From an uncultured Chloroflexia bacterium (GTDB lineage Bacteria; Chloroflexota; Limnocylindria; QHBO01), in contig CAWGTN010000002.1 of assembly GCA_963825525.1 (NCBI GenBank), positions 1,344,001 through 1,408,000 of the forward strand: 64,000 bases of DNA, read 5' to 3'. The notes beneath the pieces are model-generated. The model had not been told where the DNA came from. It saw only the letters and a program-made list of their open reading frames with translations, and did no database searches. The position numbers were made by a program, and so were the translations under genes. Below, in pieces: positions 4,943 through 10,904 of this stretch (position 1 is the first letter of the stretch; each line of letters starts with the position of its first letter).

Positions 4943-5019
4943 TGGCGGGCCCGACCGGATTCGAACCGGCGATCTCCAGCGTGACAGGCTGGCATGTTGG
5001 GCCACTACACCACGGGCCC
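4943..5019 (-). tRNA. tRNA-Asp (GTC)
   Basis: GGGCCCG acceptor stem, anticodon loop CTGTCAC, TTCGAAT T-loop, encoded CCA. Confidence 0.97.
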
Positions 5020-7163: not shown

Positions 7164-8816
7164 ATGAGAGGTATGGAGTCAATGACCGTCGTCCCAACCG
7201 ACGTCGACGCGCGCTTCGATCGCACGATCGATCGCTGGTTCCGAGACCAGCTCGCGATGCGACCCGAGACGGCGACATTCATGGGCATCCACGACCACGA
7301 CGGCGCCCTGTCCTCCGGCTCCCGCGATGCCATCGAGGAGGAGGTCGCCTTCCATCGGCGCGCGATTGACGAGCTTTCGGTTCTCGACCCCGCCGAGCTG
7401 AGTCCGGACCGCGGCCTCGATCGGGATCTCGCCATTCACCAGGCGCGACTCGCCATCCACTGGCAGACCGAATACCGCCCGTGGGCCGGCGCGTCCGGCG
7501 GAGCCGAGCACATCGGTGAAGCGCTGTTCCCGCTCTTCACCCGCAACTTCGCGGCACTCGACGAGCGGCTCGAGCGCATTGCCGAGCGCCTTGAGGCGGC
7601 ACCACGCTACCTGGACGAGGTTCGCGAGCGGGTCACCGCCCCGGTTCGGCTGTGGACGGAGATCGACATCGAGTCGACCGAGCATCTGCCGAGCTTCCTC
7701 GACACCATCCTGGCCGCCGCCCGTGCCGAATCGGCGGATGGGAGGCTCGTCGAACGCCTCAGTCGGGCTGCGCAGGACACCAAATCAGCCCTGGACGATC
7801 ATCTCGTCTGGCTCCGGTCCGACGTCCTTCCGCGGGCGGAGGCGGATTGGAAAGCCGGACCCGAGGGCTTCGAGGAGATGATCCGGCTCCGCGAGCTCGA
7901 GGCGAACGGCGACGAGATCCTGGCGGTCGGCGAGGAGCTCCTCGCGTCCGAGAAGCAGGCGCGCGACGCGCTCGGTCCGCAGATCGCTCCGGGAGCCAGC
8001 GCGTCCGAGGTCGCCGATGTCGTCAAGGACGACCACGCGGCCACGTTCGCCGAGGCACTGGGCGAGTACCGGAGCTCGATGGATCGCGCCCGCGCATTCG
8101 TCGTCGAGCACGGGATCGCCACGCCGCCGGACGAGGACCACCTCAACGTGATCGAGACGCCGTCGTTCGTCCGTCACCTCATCCCGTTCGCCGCCTACTA
8201 CGAACCGGCGAAGTTCGACGAGACACCGGTCGGCACGTACATCGTCACCCCGGCCGCCTCGCCCGAGATGATGCGCGAGCACAACCGGGCCTCGATCAGC
8301 AACACCTCGGTCCACGAGGCGTACCCGGGCCATCATCTGCAGCTCAGCGCCGCGATCACCAACCCCAGCCTGGTCCGCCTGTTCTCGGGCGCGCCGGAGT
8401 TCAGCGAGGGCTGGGCGTTCTACTGCGAGCGGATGATGAAGGAGGCGGGCTTCGACGACACGCCGACGGGTTGGTACATCGTCCACACCGACGCCATCTG
8501 GCGCGCGGTCCGCATCATCCTGGACGTCCAGCTCCATCGCGGGCTGATCAGCGTCGAGGATGCAGTCGAGCGCATGGTGGCCGAAACCGGCTTCGAGCGG
8601 CCGGCCGCACTGGCCGAGGTCAAGCGCTACACGTCATCCCCCACGTATCAGCTCTCCTACCTCTTCGGCCGTCACATGATCCAGAAGCTCAAGGCCGAGG
8701 TGGAGGCACGCGAAGGCGCCGATTTCGACATCCGTCGCTTCCACGACACCCTCATCTACGGGGGAACGATGCCGGTGAGCTATGCACGCCGGCTCTTCGA
8801 GCGCCCGGGCCGATGA
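7164..8816 (+). CDS. DUF885 family protein (metallopeptidase-like)
   Basis: HEAYPGHHLQ and EGWAFYCE motifs. Confidence 0.9.
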   Translation: MRGMESMTVVPTDVDARFDRTIDRWFRDQLAMRPETATFMGIHDHDGALSSGSRDAIEEEVAFHRRAIDELSVLDPAELSPDRGLDRDLAIHQARLAIHWQTEYRPWAGASGGAEHIGEALFPLFTRNFAALDERLERIAERLEAAPRYLDEVRERVTAPVRLWTEIDIESTEHLPSFLDTILAAARAESADGRLVERLSRAAQDTKSALDDHLVWLRSDVLPRAEADWKAGPEGFEEMIRLRELEANGDEILAVGEELLASEKQARDALGPQIAPGASASEVADVVKDDHAATFAEALGEYRSSMDRARAFVVEHGIATPPDEDHLNVIETPSFVRHLIPFAAYYEPAKFDETPVGTYIVTPAASPEMMREHNRASISNTSVHEAYPGHHLQLSAAITNPSLVRLFSGAPEFSEGWAFYCERMMKEAGFDDTPTGWYIVHTDAIWRAVRIILDVQLHRGLISVEDAVERMVAETGFERPAALAEVKRYTSSPTYQLSYLFGRHMIQKLKAEVEAREGADFDIRRFHDTLIYGGTMPVSYARRLFERPGR

Positions 8817-9478
8817 CACGTGGGCTGCTGGTGGCCGCTGCGGCCCTCCTGCTCGCCGGCTGCGGCCAGGAACCGACGCCCGCGCCGCCGGCCTGCCCAA
8901 CCGAGCCGCCAACGACGGTCTCGGCGCAGGCGACGCTCGAGGGAGCCTCGTTTGCCATCGTCACCATTGGCGGAGCGGTCGAGGGCGAGTTCACGATCGC
9001 GCTGAACGGCTCGGCGGCGCCTACCGCGACGGCGAACTTCGTGGCGCTGGCCCGCTGCGGGTTCTACGACCAGGTCAAGTTCCACCGCGTCCTGGCCGGA
9101 TTCGTCATCCAGGCCGGCGACCCGAACACGAAGGCGTACGACGGTGACTTCAGCGGCATCGGTCGCGAGGGTGCCGGCTACCGGTACGAGATCGAGCCTC
9201 CGGCCGATGAGCTGGGTTACGACCGCTACTCGGTGGCCATGGCGAACGACACGCGAACGAACGACAGCCAGTTCTTCGTGTCGCTCGACGATCTCAACGG
9301 ACGCCTCGCCCGCACGTACACGATCTTCGGCATGGTGGTTGGCGGCACGGACGTCATCGACGCCATCGGAGCCGTTCCGGTGATGGATCCGCGGGTCGGC
9401 ATCCCGGCCACGCCGGTCTGGATCGAATCGATCCTGATCTCGGATGAGGGCGGTCCAGTGGCATCTCCGGGGTCCTGA
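8813..9478 (+). CDS. Cyclophilin-type peptidyl-prolyl isomerase, lipoprotein
   Basis: Lipobox LLAGC; FHRVLAGFVIQAGDP, SQFF, YTIFG. Confidence 0.9.
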   Translation: MTRGLLVAAAALLLAGCGQEPTPAPPACPTEPPTTVSAQATLEGASFAIVTIGGAVEGEFTIALNGSAAPTATANFVALARCGFYDQVKFHRVLAGFVIQAGDPNTKAYDGDFSGIGREGAGYRYEIEPPADELGYDRYSVAMANDTRTNDSQFFVSLDDLNGRLARTYTIFGMVVGGTDVIDAIGAVPVMDPRVGIPATPVWIESILISDEGGPVASPGS

Positions 9479-9499
9479 GAACGCCGAGACGCTTTGCTT

Positions 9500-9556
9500 T
9501 GTAAAGGAATCTCAACCTCTACAAGCCTTGTCTAAAGAGAACAGGCGATCTATCCT
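9500..9556 (+). promoter_or_regulatory. Sigma-70-like promoter with upstream inverted repeat
   Basis: TTGTCT(9528)-17 nt-TATCCT(9551); TGTAAAGG-N8-CCTCTACA at 9500-9523. Confidence 0.55.
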
Positions 9557-9562
9557 CAGGAT

Positions 9563-9710
9563 GCTGTTCGCACAGCGATTCACCACTGGTTGCAAGGCCA
9601 TGGGTAGGTTAGGGTTAGGGTAGTGCGGGAAACCGTGCGTGAAAGATGCCCTTGCGATTAGCGAATCCGGCAGCAATGAAGGCCCCCGCTTCGGCGGGGG
9701 CCTTCGTCTA
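9563..9710 (+). ncRNA. Candidate structured non-coding RNA, family unrecognised
   Basis: Hairpins GCTGT-TCGC-ACAGC, TGGTT-GCAA-GGCCA, GTGCGG-GAAA-CCGTGC inside AGGGTA/TGCCCT, GATT-AGCG-AATC; bounded by promoter and terminator. Confidence 0.6.
9678..9710 (+). terminator. Intrinsic terminator-like hairpin
   Basis: GAAGGCCCCCGC-TTCG-GCGGGGGCCTTC perfect 12-bp stem; weak T tail. Confidence 0.75.
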
Positions 9711-9787
9711 TCCGGCTCGGGTCGTGACGAGCATCGGAACCCCATGTACCATGCCCTCGGCCCCATCGGGGCCAGCCCATTGATCGC

Positions 9788-9863
9788 GCGCCGGTAGCTC
9801 AGTGGATAGAGCGTCGGCCTCCGGAGCCGAAGGTCGCAGGTTCGAATCCTGTCCGGCGCGCCA
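9788..9863 (+). tRNA. tRNA-Arg (CCG)
   Basis: GCGCCGG acceptor stem, TCGGC-CTCCGGA-GCCGA anticodon arm, TTCGAAT, CCA. Confidence 0.97.
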
Positions 9864-9882
9864 GACCCTCCCCGCACGTCCG

Positions 9883-10904
9883 CTAGCGCCAGCCGAGCTC
9901 CGGGGCCACGAACTGAGGATGCTCTCGATCGCGTGGGCGTTGTAGTCGACGCCGAGCTGGTTCGGGACCGTCAGCAGCAGGGTGTCAGCCGCCTGGATCG
10001 CCGTGTCTCCGGCGAGCTCCCTGGCGAGGACGTCGGGCTCCGCCGCGTACGAGCGTCCGAAGATCGCCTTGGTCTGCGCGTCGATGTAGCCGACCTGGTC
10101 CGATGACTGGTTGCCACGCCCGAAATACGCCCGATCGCGATCATCGACCAGCGCGAAGATGCTCCGGCTGACCGACACCCGCGGCTCGCGCTCATGCCCC
10201 GCCGCGGCCCACGCATCACGGAACAGCCGGATCTGCTCGGCCTGGAGCTCGTGGAACGGCACGCCGGCGTCCTCGGTCAGCAGTGTTGACGACATCAGAT
10301 TCATGCCCTGCTGCCCGGTCCATTCCGCCGTGGCGCGTGTTCCGGCGCCCCACCAGATCCGGTCGCGCAGCCCGGGCGAGTGCGGCTCGGGGCGGAGCAG
10401 CCCGGGCGGGTTCGGAAACATCGGGTGTGGGTTCGGCTCGGCGAACCCGACCCCGGACAGGGCGTCGAGGAAGACCTTCGTGTGCTCGCGGGCCATGTCG
10501 GCGTCCGTCCCGCCGTCCGGCGGCACGTGGCCGAAGTGTCGGAAACCGTCGATCACCTGCTCGGGCGATCCACGGCTGATCCCGAGCTGCAGGCGACCTC
10601 CTGCAATGAGGTCGGCGGCACCGGCATCTTCGACCATGTAGAGCGGGTTCTCGTAGCGCATGTCGATGACGGCCGTCCCGATCTCGATACGCTTCGTTCG
10701 CGCCCCGATCGCCGCCAGCAGTGGGAAGGGCGACGCGAGCTGCTGCGCGAAATGGTGGACGCGGAAGTACGCGCCGTCCGCACCCAGGTCCTCGACCGCC
10801 TCGGCCAGCTCGATGGACTGAATCAGCGCGTCCGATGCCGAGCGCACCTGAGAGTGGGGTGATGCCGACCAATGACCGAACGAGAGGAACCCCAGCTTCT
10901 TCAT
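9883..10904 (-). CDS. LLM-class flavin-dependent oxidoreductase (frameshift near 3' end)
   Basis: RVHHF, IEIGTAVID, LQLGISRG; natural end VAPELGWR* in a shifted frame. Confidence 0.88.

Follow-up and report, generated by a model that had tools for sequence, protein, structure and literature searches.

Genomic context of the RNA gene

The window, the whole 64,000-nt stretch of DNA that was analyzed, comes from a genome of Limnocylindria, an uncultured class of Chloroflexota that is abundant in soil and freshwater. Between a cyclophilin-type PPIase gene and a tRNA gene it contains the lower-GC intergenic block that an earlier note, made from the sequence, had pointed out (GC 0.49-0.55 over positions 9450-9650 vs 0.63-0.80 in the flanks). 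The genes at the locus are as follows.

8813..9478, + strand: cyclophilin-type PPIase gene, upstream of the small RNA (Pfam PF00160, E = 2.4e-31)
9563..9706, + strand: complete predicted small RNA (sRNA), 144 nt, near-invariant in 20 genus relatives while its flanks diverge
9788..9863, + strand: tRNA-Arg(CCG) gene, downstream of the sRNA

The segment 9563-9706 of the + strand is almost certainly a genuine RNA gene that represents a new family in Limnocylindria, and its product, a structured small RNA of ~144 nt (144-176 nt across families), is stable and transcribed on its own. The sRNA was assigned to the + strand because of its many G-U pairs and the placement of its promoter and terminator. 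A sigma-70-type promoter is followed by a 5' hairpin and by a long interrupted stem (P1, P2, P2b). At its far end this stem opens to an internal loop that is large and asymmetric, with the short hairpin P4 as its cap; downstream of the stem, a conserved pre-terminator segment leads into an intrinsic terminator. A 158-nt stretch folds better than its shuffles (z = -3.31; 2/200 shuffles equally good).

The upstream neighbor is constant, since in 13/13 loci from three families the ORF directly upstream, on the same strand, falls into one BLASTP cluster, and Pfam confirmed 3 of these 13 ORFs as cyclophilin. DUF885 was rejected as a synteny anchor, being part of the upstream cluster in only 9/13 loci. 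The downstream ORFs vary between loci. In f2 and f5, two of the five families of the class compared here (f1 to f5), no cyclophilin gene was found in the available DNA beside the DUF885 genes.

Promoter, terminator, and sequence conservation

The elements that delimit the sRNA gene, as placed by comparison with its relatives, are the following.

9491..9527, + strand: promoter-upstream block GCTTTGCTTTGTAAAGGAATCT..., which starts right after the cyclophilin stop codon and is kept in 20 genus relatives
9528..9533, + strand: -35 hexamer TTGTCT, conserved in the genus alignment
9551..9556, + strand: -10 hexamer TATCCT, conserved in the genus alignment, with a 17-nt spacer from the -35 hexamer
9557..9562, + strand: discriminator, 6 nt, non-conserved
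9668..9677, + strand: pre-terminator segment CGGCAGCAAU, conserved, left single-stranded or else paired with the 5' end of the RNA in a closing helix, as its 3' strand
9678..9705, + strand: terminator hairpin GAAGGCCCCCGC/TTCG/GCGGGGGCCTTC, 12/12 bp paired, TTCG loop

A promoter with its +1 at about 9563 had been proposed from the window alone. When the window is aligned with 20 relatives from its genus, the result agrees with this: both hexamers are conserved, and near-invariant sequence runs from 9563 on. Other genera of the family carry a TTGACC -35 hexamer and a TAnnnT hexamer separated by a freely variable spacer of 17-18 nt. Conserved hexamers combined with a variable spacer and discriminator are the pattern expected if the sRNA has its own promoter. 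By hand count the promoter hexamers of the window match 8/12 consensus positions, and a simple consensus promoter scan returned 0 sites. A consensus terminator scan likewise came back with 0, for want of a T run at the hairpin of the window. The 12-bp, TTCG-capped terminator that had been described in the earlier note is, nevertheless, paired at every position, and an equivalent hairpin followed by a U run is found in f3 and f4, the U run being weak in the copy of the window. The conserved block of the genus alignment stops sharply at this hairpin, and the comparative evidence overrides the null results of both consensus scans. The pre-terminator segment has equivalents in f3 (CCGG(G)ACAGC) and in f4 (CGGAUCGGCU).

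An inverted repeat that had been placed upstream of the -35 hexamer could not be found at seed 6. A AAGGAATCT-like sequence and an A-rich sequence upstream of the promoter are also kept in other genera and families, and the 9491-9527 block may act as a UP-element-like or operator site. The region as a whole is present in 20/24 genomes of the same genus, with 85-95% identity over 205-312 nt, whereas the 3' end of the adjacent coding sequence is only 70-78% identical within the genus. By these values the RNA locus is more conserved than the coding DNA that flanks it.

Helices of the sRNA

The paired elements of the sRNA are listed below in 5' to 3' order.

9563..9576, + strand: P0, 5' hairpin GCUGU-UCGC-ACAGC, whose pairing is kept in f3 despite a changed sequence
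9577..9581, + strand: P1 5' strand GAUUC, pairing with 9663-9667 in the constrained fold
9587..9601, + strand: 5' strands of P2 (9587-9597) and P2b (9599-9601), C9598 being mismatched
9623..9638, + strand: P4, hairpin GUGCGG-GAAA-CCGUGC
9646..9660, + strand: 3' strands of P2b (9646-9648) and P2 (9650-9660), C9649 being mismatched
9663..9667, + strand: P1 3' strand GAAUC, from the constrained fold

P2/P2b and P4 carry many compensatory changes. In an alignment of 35 distinct rows (A3), 93.6% of the cells are paired and 11/18 pairs change on both sides; none of 500 shuffles reaches any of the measures, and controls slid along the alignment are 28-47% paired. In a second alignment of 84 distinct rows (A4), 13/19 pairs change on both sides. 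Within P2/P2b, 9/13 of the pairs tested in A4 (9589-9601) change on both sides and 0/500 shuffles reach the score, the outermost P2 pairs (9587-9588 with 9659-9660) having been read by hand in family f1 only. The mismatch between P2 and P2b is occupied by a U-A pair in 12 rows of A4, and RNAalifold independently recovers both helices. The 6-bp stem of P4 is formed in 20/20 distinct P4 sequences, with compensatory changes within the family such as GUGCGG/CCGUGC vs GAGCGG/CCGCUC. The helices covary strongly, covariation among homologs being one of the checks that the earlier note had called for. Among the tetraloop-capped helices which that note had described, the GAAA hairpin at 9623-9638 is real and covaries, but the GCAA hairpin GGTTGCAAGGCC is absent, its bases being the 5' strand of P2, paired with 9650-9660. 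The minimum free energy (MFE) folds of single sequences were discarded as a model because their pairings of the G-rich loop lack covariation support.

The peripheral pairings, which are invariant within the family, are tentative, as is an extra arm in f3 and f4. P0 has equivalents in f3 (GUCGC-GCAA-GCGAC and CUCCG-UUCG-CGGAG), but its first strand (9563-9567) can alternatively pair with GGCAGC at 9669-9674, and this closing helix is the constrained MFE structure and covaries in f3. P1 cannot covary within the family because it is invariant there, and f3 has a 5-bp helix, CUGCC/GGCAG, at the position of P1.

An invariant internal loop framed by covarying helices

P2/P2b and P4 frame an invariant internal loop, GGGUAGGU(N0-2)GGGUNAGGGUA opposite GNSANAG, which consists of two strands.

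9602..9622, + strand: J5', G-rich loop strand GGGUAGGUUAGGGUUAGGGUA, without C, 15 variants among 111 distinct cores
9639..9645, + strand: J3', the opposite strand of the loop, GUGAAAG (GNSANAG by consensus), with 7 variants in the 111 distinct cores

The loop is asymmetric, with 21-23 nt opposite 7 nt, and is made of G, U, and A only in the copy of the window. Its variation in J5' is confined to two linkers, the one that follows the GG tract, which varies in base and in length (0-2 nt), and the N of UNA. The G tracts GGG, GG, GGG, and GGG are kept in 111/111 distinct cores, so that four conserved G tracts with variable loops between them, the pattern sought in an RNA G-quadruplex, are present in every core. 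A quadruplex of four GGG runs with two TTAGGG copies had already been suggested from the window. The G runs are indeed there, but the wrong ones had been chosen: the fourth GGG run, at 9627-9629, belongs to the stem and loop of P4 and is not conserved, and the TTAGGG copies are not conserved either, their counterparts in relatives being TTTGGG, TAAGGG, and TCAGGG. The quadruplex model of ViennaRNA predicted none in five full RNAs from three families or in the loops alone. A G-quadruplex may form in this loop, but a simple one is not predicted by the energy model.

Distribution of the sRNA

The distribution was searched with a covariance model (R1) of the 75-nt core, which found exactly one match per genome in 96/151 Limnocylindria genomes. 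By family, matches were obtained in 47/50 genomes of f1, 42/44 of f3, and 6/6 of f4, vs 0/49 of f2 and 0/1 of f5; when f2 was searched again with laxer filters, 0/39 genomes had a match at E<=0.01. None of 136 Chloroflexota genomes outside these families matched R1. Among the genomes searched, the sRNA family is confined to three families of Limnocylindria, and the sRNA is not essential to the class because it is missing from f2 (0/49, and 0/39 with the laxer filters) and from the single f5 genome. It is carried mainly by records and sequencing runs from soil, rhizosphere, and lake samples.

Five records from a pattern scan bore no Chloroflexota label, four being assigned to other phyla and one to "bacterium" only. 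They were read as mis-binned or unclassified contigs, and not as cases of the sRNA beyond Limnocylindria, because their flanks resemble Limnocylindria loci.

RNA-library contigs at the locus

Contigs from RNA libraries map to 9565-9713 in 3/4 of the sequencing runs examined (three runs from three studies), the contigs carrying no strand information. Two contigs of run X13, of 146 and 111 nt, start at 9565, and an 86-nt contig of run X15 spans 9592-9675 with no differences; RNA-library contigs end at 9706 or 9713. In run X4 one contig already begins at 9490, on the upstream side of the predicted +1, and the contigs of run X7 cover only the tRNA and downstream DNA. Two stretches, 9300-9475 in the cyclophilin gene and 9718-9761, were without a contig in all four runs, but gaps in contig cover prove nothing. 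Since they are contigs, these data give no strand, level, or true ends, their depth figures cannot rank genes, and RNA libraries can carry DNA, so they are taken as a hint that the predicted transcript is expressed.

Known RNA families and candidate partners

A scan of the window against Rfam, which the earlier note had proposed, matched no family to the sRNA at gathering score, nor at E<=10 apart from look-alikes of the terminator hairpin; when three distant homologues were added to the window, E<=10 yielded only terminator look-alikes and tRNAs. The minus-strand matches to sodF-sRNA and 6C (26.3 and 22.7 bits vs gathering scores of 46 and 47) were set aside as hairpin noise, and a match to RsmY (21.8 bits vs a gathering score of 57) is the terminator hairpin. 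The failure to recognize a known RNA family in the first reading of the window agrees with these scans. SRP RNA and RNase P RNA were rejected as identities, as the genome of the window has both elsewhere (G000:C1:127515-127614 and G000:C1:248376-248703, respectively). A riboswitch or T-box was rejected as well, with no Rfam aptamer match and no constant class of downstream gene. The motifs of the Chloroflexi RNA-motif surveys are generally in Rfam, which has no match here, and the Limnocylindria literature, as far as it was accessible, yielded no described non-coding RNA for the class. The sRNA family is previously undescribed. Taken together, its promoter, terminator, single copy, covariation, and want of an Rfam match support the main reading of the earlier note, a stand-alone structured RNA of ~150 nt.

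Genes for known RNA-binding partners were sought in five genomes, each 92-97% complete, and Hfq (PF17209), CsrA, Ro60/TROVE (PF05731), and RRM genes were each found in 0/5. A sponge of the CsrB/RsmY type would carry GGA motifs in its hairpin loops and need CsrA as its partner; it was rejected on this basis, and so was a Y RNA, whose Ro60/TROVE partner gene is the one missing from all five.

Proposed function of the sRNA

We tentatively propose, with somewhat less than even confidence, that the invariant loop is a binding platform for a protein or a ligand, a function that is inferred only. The sRNA would act through its G/U/A-only internal loop, which the covarying helices would hold in a fixed non-Watson-Crick fold. 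The partner would most likely be a protein, the sRNA being a ribonucleoprotein partner or a protein sponge, and a small ligand would be less likely. It would work in trans in a housekeeping-type role rather than as an antisense regulator, which is disfavored because Hfq is found in 0/5 genomes and no outstanding complementary target was detected. Two points run counter to a binding platform: a single-stranded stretch that never changes could equally well be suited to pair with an invariant nucleic-acid target, and the candidate partners CsrA, Ro/TROVE, RRM, and Hfq are the very proteins that were not found in the five genomes.

The first of these points leads to a trans-acting base-pairing sRNA, a reading that we consider doubtful although it is the best of the alternatives. 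Its seed would be the G-rich loop or the pre-terminator CCGGCAGCA, pairing with C-rich or complementary mRNA sites, and the gene may be of the 3'-end-associated type, driven by an internal promoter of its own within the cyclophilin operon. A promoter and terminator of its own are typical of an sRNA gene, the position directly 3' of the cyclophilin gene on the same strand is shared by the 13 loci from three families, and the model supported by covariation leaves the conserved segments 9602-9622 and 9668-9677 unpaired. A complementarity scan of the genome of the window (8-nt exact seeds and RNAduplex with three conserved segments) gave, however, no outstanding target; in this one genome (G000), the matches besides the antisense strand of the sRNA itself were by estimate only of chance size. 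A G-rich seed cannot pair with Shine-Dalgarno sequences, Hfq is missing as noted above, and it is rare for the seed of a base-pairing sRNA to stay unchanged over 21-23 nt in different families when the helices around it change freely.

It is unlikely, but still worth weighing, that the sRNA carries a ligand- or ion-sensing aptamer whose G tracts and 7-nt strand form a G-quadruplex-like or non-canonical pocket. Invariant tracts, variable linkers, and framing helices make up the conservation pattern of aptamer cores, and the loop has four invariant G tracts joined by linkers that vary in length and sequence, is free of C in the copy of the window, and is bordered by covarying helices on both sides. 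Against this, ViennaRNA predicts no quadruplex and one tract has only two Gs, no expression platform competing with the terminator was found, the downstream gene is inconstant, and the neighbors suggest no ligand. A still more speculative version, to which we give rather little credence, makes the loop a natural G-quadruplex-like or non-Watson-Crick pocket for a metabolite or a dedicated protein, conceivably the upstream cyclophilin.

The downstream neighbor raises the question of whether the RNA belongs to tRNA-Arg(CCG), as its leader, co-transcript, or processing element, or else is a 3' UTR-terminator module of the cyclophilin operon, in either case without a function in trans. Where a downstream tRNA is present, it is always tRNA-Arg(CCG) on the same strand (60/60, in all three families), and in some genomes, e.g. 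at locus L043, the tRNA follows the terminator after only about 25-30 nt, so that a promoter of its own would hardly fit in between. These 60 cases are, nonetheless, drawn from 171 distinct loci with enough DNA, and the other 111 have no tRNA within the available downstream DNA. The genus of the window keeps a -10-like TACCAT of its own ahead of tRNA-Arg, and in f2 and f5 the same tRNA is present but the sRNA is not, the tRNA abutting a divergently oriented gene there. An invariant 21-23-nt loop and covarying helices also far exceed the needs of a terminator. Both forms of this reading are, in our estimation, highly improbable.

A highly divergent 6S-like RNA, which would bind the RNA polymerase holoenzyme through its large bubble, is judged to have at most a slim chance of being correct. 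The sRNA is single-copy, housekeeping-like, and of suitable length (144-176 nt), with a long interrupted stem opening to an asymmetric bubble, and the 6S model of Rfam is matched in 0/15 and 0/5 Limnocylindria genomes vs 34/136 genomes of other Chloroflexota. However, the arm beyond the bubble has only 6 bp in 20/20 variants, vs the long terminal stem of 6S RNA, the sRNA has its own 5' hairpin and intrinsic terminator, and the window shows no Rfam 6S match even at E<=10. The two RNAs do not complement each other, because f2 and f5 lack both the sRNA and a detectable 6S RNA.

Finally, the mRNA of a micropeptide (ATG at 9600, MGRLGLG*), raised as an alternative in the earlier note, is refuted and has virtually no remaining likelihood, since the ATG and its 7-codon frame exist in the window but length differences of 0-2 nt in the linker that follows ATGGGTAGGT shift the frame, giving 7, 5, 5, 3, or 17 residues in different relatives (3-17 codons), the ATG itself being the invariant 3' part of the P2b strand plus the first loop base, with no ribosome-binding site seen.

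Significance and comparison with known systems

A single-copy sRNA that is more conserved than the surrounding proteins and has an aptamer-grade core amounts to a ready-made new RNA family, and the annotation of hundreds of metagenome-assembled genomes would be improved by it. The sRNA is also a concrete object for biochemistry because it can be made in vitro without cultivation. Were the loop to bind a protein or a ligand, as we tentatively propose, a lineage-specific regulatory or housekeeping function would be revealed.

Among known systems, 6S RNA (RF00013) resembles the sRNA in being single-copy, of similar length, and built on an interrupted stem that opens to a large bubble; the sRNA differs in its 6-bp distal arm, its own terminator and 5' hairpin, its invariant G-rich loop, and its absence from the f2 and f5 genomes searched. 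The 3'-end sRNAs of the DapZ/MicL type likewise lie directly 3' of a conserved protein gene and have their own promoter and a terminal terminator, whereas the present sRNA has a structured core in place of a short seed, with Hfq in 0/5 genomes and a null target scan. Transcriptional riboswitches share with it the order of a conserved aptamer-like core followed by an intrinsic terminator, and are set apart by the inconstant downstream gene of the sRNA, for which neither a terminator-competing pairing nor an Rfam riboswitch match was found.

The raiA motif RNA and OLE are lineage-restricted independent genes with conserved cores and covarying helices and with no known biochemical function. The sRNA is like them an orphan, stand-alone structured RNA found by comparative genomics; unlike them, it is smaller (144-176 nt), belongs to Limnocylindria, has no Rfam match, and has a G/U/A-only, asymmetric-loop core. 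The Spinach and Mango aptamers also have an internal loop between Watson-Crick helices in which invariant G tracts are joined by variable linkers, but they are artificial, whereas this is a natural sRNA with a tract of only two Gs and with no quadruplex predicted by the energy model. Should the pocket reading prove true, the sRNA would be a natural counterpart of the Spinach and Mango type, a trans-acting, aptamer-bearing housekeeping RNA representing a new class of ribonucleoprotein or sensor.

The sRNA Gene Has Its Own Promoter and Terminator between Cyclophilin and tRNA-Arg

The predicted 144-nt structured RNA (the sRNA; 9563-9706, + strand) is located within a 309-nt spacer that leads from a cyclophilin-type PPIase gene to tRNA-Arg(CCG), and the GC content of this spacer (0.49-0.55, versus 0.63-0.80 in its surroundings) confirmed the lower-GC intergenic block described in the earlier note. 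The features considered here are the following.

4943-5019, - strand: tRNA-Asp(GTC) gene; apart from this one and those listed below, the window showed no RNA genes
8813-9478, + strand: cyclophilin-type PPIase gene (Pfam PF00160, E = 2.4e-31)
9528-9533, + strand: -35 hexamer TTGTCT
9551-9556, + strand: -10 hexamer TATCCT
9563-9576, + strand: P0, 5' hairpin
9577-9581 with 9663-9667, + strand: P1 (GAUUC with GAAUC)
9587-9597 with 9650-9660, + strand: P2
9599-9601 with 9646-9648, + strand: P2b
9623-9638, + strand: P4 hairpin, GUGCGG-GAAA-CCGUGC
9678-9705, + strand: terminator hairpin, perfect 12 bp, TTCG loop
9788-9863, + strand: tRNA-Arg(CCG) gene, downstream of the sRNA

In a draw of 40 relatives, the spacer was retained at 85-95% identity over 205-312 nt in 20 of the 24 same-genus genomes, and in one further genome of the genus a contig end left only its start; the 3' end of the adjoining cyclophilin coding sequence showed only 70-78% identity. 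The conserved block of the genus alignment begins right after the cyclophilin stop codon and comprises the two hexamers, spaced by 17 nt, six non-conserved bases after the -10, and a near-invariant run from G9563 to G9706 with immediate divergence beyond. Other genera of the window's family have TTGACC and TAnnnT as hexamers, with the sequence between them wholly changed, and such kept hexamers around a changing spacer are the signature of a promoter rather than of RNA structure. A simple consensus scan missed both the promoter and the terminator. Both therefore depend on the comparative evidence, which upheld the proposed promoter with a +1 near 9563 as well as the TTCG-capped 12-bp terminator; a U run follows the equivalent hairpin in families f3 and f4 of the class Limnocylindria. 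At seed 6, no inverted repeat was detected just ahead of the -35, where the earlier note had proposed one. A separate -10-like TACCAT (9747-9752) ahead of the tRNA is kept in the genus and may be the -10 of that gene.

All 13 loci compared, which represent three families, have the cyclophilin gene immediately upstream in the same orientation, a count based on BLASTP clusters of crude ORFs, with Pfam confirming the window and three other loci, and a DUF885 gene precedes it in nine of the 13. In f3 and f4 loci (L207, L209, L210), two or three tandem cyclophilin-cluster ORFs lie upstream of the sRNA, the adjoining one being a short form of ~155 aa. The N terminus of the window cyclophilin, MTRGLLVAAAALLLAGCG, reads as a lipoprotein-type signal. 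On the opposite strand, a luciferase-like monooxygenase ORF (9708-10904, - strand; Pfam PF00296) has its first in-frame stop at 9708-9710 and, as read, would extend antisense across the tRNA-Arg gene to the base of the sRNA terminator; either this hairpin is shared by the two strands or the monooxygenase has another C terminus than the one read here.

Two Helix Units Frame a Conserved Internal Loop

The segment 9555-9712 (158 nt) folded better than its shuffled versions (z = -3.31; 2 of 200 shuffles were as good), and two helix units, P2/P2b and P4, are firmly supported. In structural alignment A3 of the core (35 distinct rows), 93.6% of cells were paired, compared with 28-47% in slid controls, 11 of 18 pairs had changed on both sides, and none of 500 shuffles reached the score. 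In the larger alignment A4 (84 distinct rows), 84.4% of cells were paired and 13 of 19 pairs had changed on both sides; on four measures none of 500 shuffles reached its score, and for the number of pairs changed on both sides 3 of 500 did. P2 and P2b are divided by a C-C mismatch (9598 with 9649) that is U-A in 12 A4 rows, where the two become a single continuous helix, and RNAalifold predicted both unaided. Many G-U pairs in the helices, such as U-G (columns 4/73 in 19 A4 rows, columns 39/52 in 16), assign the sRNA to the + strand. The supposed GCAA tetraloop hairpin turned out to belong to P2, as its 5' strand. The GAAA-capped hairpin, in turn, corresponds to P4, whose 6-bp stem is present in all 20 distinct versions, with compensated changes within the window's family (e.g. 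GAGCGG/CCGCUC), and whose loop differs in f3 and f4; since the P4 register differs between families, alignment-based counts understate this helix. The suggested micropeptide from ATG 9600 is untenable as an explanation of the transcript, because linker indels shift the frame, giving 7, 5, 5, 3 or 17 residues across relatives, and the ATG itself is part of P2b.

Between P2b and P4 lies an asymmetric internal loop, which in the window copy contains no C. Its 5' strand (9602-9622) follows the pattern GGGUAGGU(N0-2)GGGUNAGGGUA and its 3' strand (9639-9645) the pattern GNSANAG. Among 111 distinct cores the 5' strand has 15 variants, which differ only in two linkers, one of them also by 0-2 nt in length. 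The earlier note had pointed to four GGG runs with TTAGGG copies; the tracts kept in every variant are GGG, GG, GGG and GGG, and the fourth run and TTAGGG proved not to be conserved.

The peripheral elements are less certain. P0 has covarying equivalents in f3, and P1 is invariant in the window's family and replaced in f3 by a 5-bp helix, CUGCC/GGCAG. With the core helices enforced, the minimum free energy fold of the window RNA pairs its 5' end GCUGU (9563-9567) with GGCAGC (9669-9674), at -63.6 kcal/mol versus -60.3 for the P0 model (~3 kcal/mol apart). The f3 counterpart of this closing helix (RCUG with CAGY) lends it covariation support, with A-U where others show G-C or G-U, and the minimum free energy folds of f3 and f4 RNAs likewise form it, there enclosing a three-way junction from which an additional arm, absent from the window's family, extends. 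These predicted folds suggest that P0 and the closing helix may constitute a structural switch.

In the Genomes Searched, the Family Is Confined to Part of the Limnocylindria

R1, a covariance model of the 75-nt core built from eight genus sequences and three distant ones, matched 96 of 151 class genomes, with one copy apiece: 47/50 in f1, 42/44 in f3, 6/6 in f4, 0/49 in f2 and 0/1 in f5. When f2 was searched again with laxer filters, 0 of 39 genomes matched at E<=0.01, and two matches at E 0.19 and 0.32 (21 bits) were read as noise. In a phylum sample, matches were confined to f1 (9/10), f3 (2/3) and f4 (1/1), with 0/136 genomes outside these families. A search for the exact pattern in one genome of each prokaryotic species matched at least 120 stretches; among the matches listed, 75 of 80 titles were Chloroflexi or Chloroflexota, 17 of these explicitly Limnocylindria or Limnocylindrales. 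The source organism of the window would accordingly be a member of the class Limnocylindria, and the family may also occur in other lineages. The remaining five records listed (four with other-phylum labels, one named only 'bacterium') have flanks like those of Limnocylindria loci. Loci L114, L116, L119 and L138, labelled Steroidobacteraceae (two), Polarisedimenticolia and Sulfomarinibacteraceae, all carry the sRNA, and L116 shares 95% identity over 646 nt with a locus from the same genus as the window; by sequence, these are probably mis-binned contigs. Unpublished-flagged genomes were counted in the genus alignment (G006, locus L019), the 151-genome tally (G115) and the pooled counts (G141, locus L035); they are absent from alignments A1-A4, and no claim depends on them.

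Contigs from RNA Libraries

A search of sequencing runs returned 24 runs from 18 studies with 0.30-0.47 of the sampled words, and four recorded as RNA, from four studies, were compared as contig data. Run X13 gave contigs of 146 and 111 nt that both start at 9565, and further ones over 9646-9706 and 9657-9713. X15 gave an 86-nt contig (9592-9675) with zero differences and another starting at 9573 with a 19-letter loose end, presumably sequencing adapter. The 233-nt contig of X4 (9490-9713, 16 differences) itself begins upstream of the predicted +1, and X7 had no contig on the sRNA. These contigs give a hint, weak to moderate, of a short RNA that has the predicted bounds, given that they carry no strand, level or true ends, that RNA libraries can hold DNA, and that several derive from relatives.

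Discussion

The sRNA is a single-copy, strongly conserved structured RNA gene, independently promoted and terminated, whose family is not in Rfam 15. At gathering score, Rfam 15 found only two tRNAs in the whole window, and for 9380-9800 a cutoff of E<=10 yielded nothing beyond weak matches resembling the terminator hairpin. The stand-alone RNA of ~150 nt perceived in the earlier note is conserved, covarying and without match to a known family. SRP RNA and RNase P RNA were both found elsewhere in the genome. We found no account of non-coding RNAs from Limnocylindria in the portion of the literature that our search covered. The sRNA represents a new family among the orphan structured bacterial sRNAs, of value to RNA biology and genome annotation.

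We tentatively favour a binding platform, more likely for a protein than for a ligand, because the loop strands are invariant, the helices covary freely and length variation is confined to one linker. The helices would hold the long loop strands in a specific tertiary fold that binds this partner, and the significance would be greater if the loop were a natural aptamer or a new ribonucleoprotein site. That the sRNA acts by base pairing is doubtful: a search for complementary sites in the window's own genome gave nothing above the estimated chance level, loop conservation appears unlike that of an antisense seed, and Hfq, like CsrA, Ro/TROVE and RRM genes, was found in 0/5 genomes (92-97% complete). 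A ligand or quadruplex aptamer is unlikely, since the ViennaRNA quadruplex model predicted none of the G-quadruplex formation suggested earlier. We consider a tRNA-leader or operon-terminator module improbable. Among 171 distinct loci for which the DNA sufficed, 60 continue into tRNA-Arg(CCG), in the same orientation, and no other tRNA ever takes this place; the other 111 show no downstream tRNA, within a flank of ~350 nt from the core for many. In f2 and f5, tRNA-Arg(CCG) adjoins a divergently oriented gene without the sRNA, and the short spacer between them (loci L219-L223) contains a TAnAnT-like -10.

Finally, the Rfam 6S model matched 34 of 136 other Chloroflexota and no Limnocylindria (0/5 and 0/15 genomes), so that a 6S gene is 'missing' there; the class may lack 6S RNA or possess a divergent form of it. 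This gap would suit a 6S-like RNA, but f2 and f5 have neither the sRNA nor a detectable 6S, and this identity is improbable too. The sRNA differs from 6S RNA in that its arm beyond the bubble is only 6 bp long and that it possesses its own terminator.
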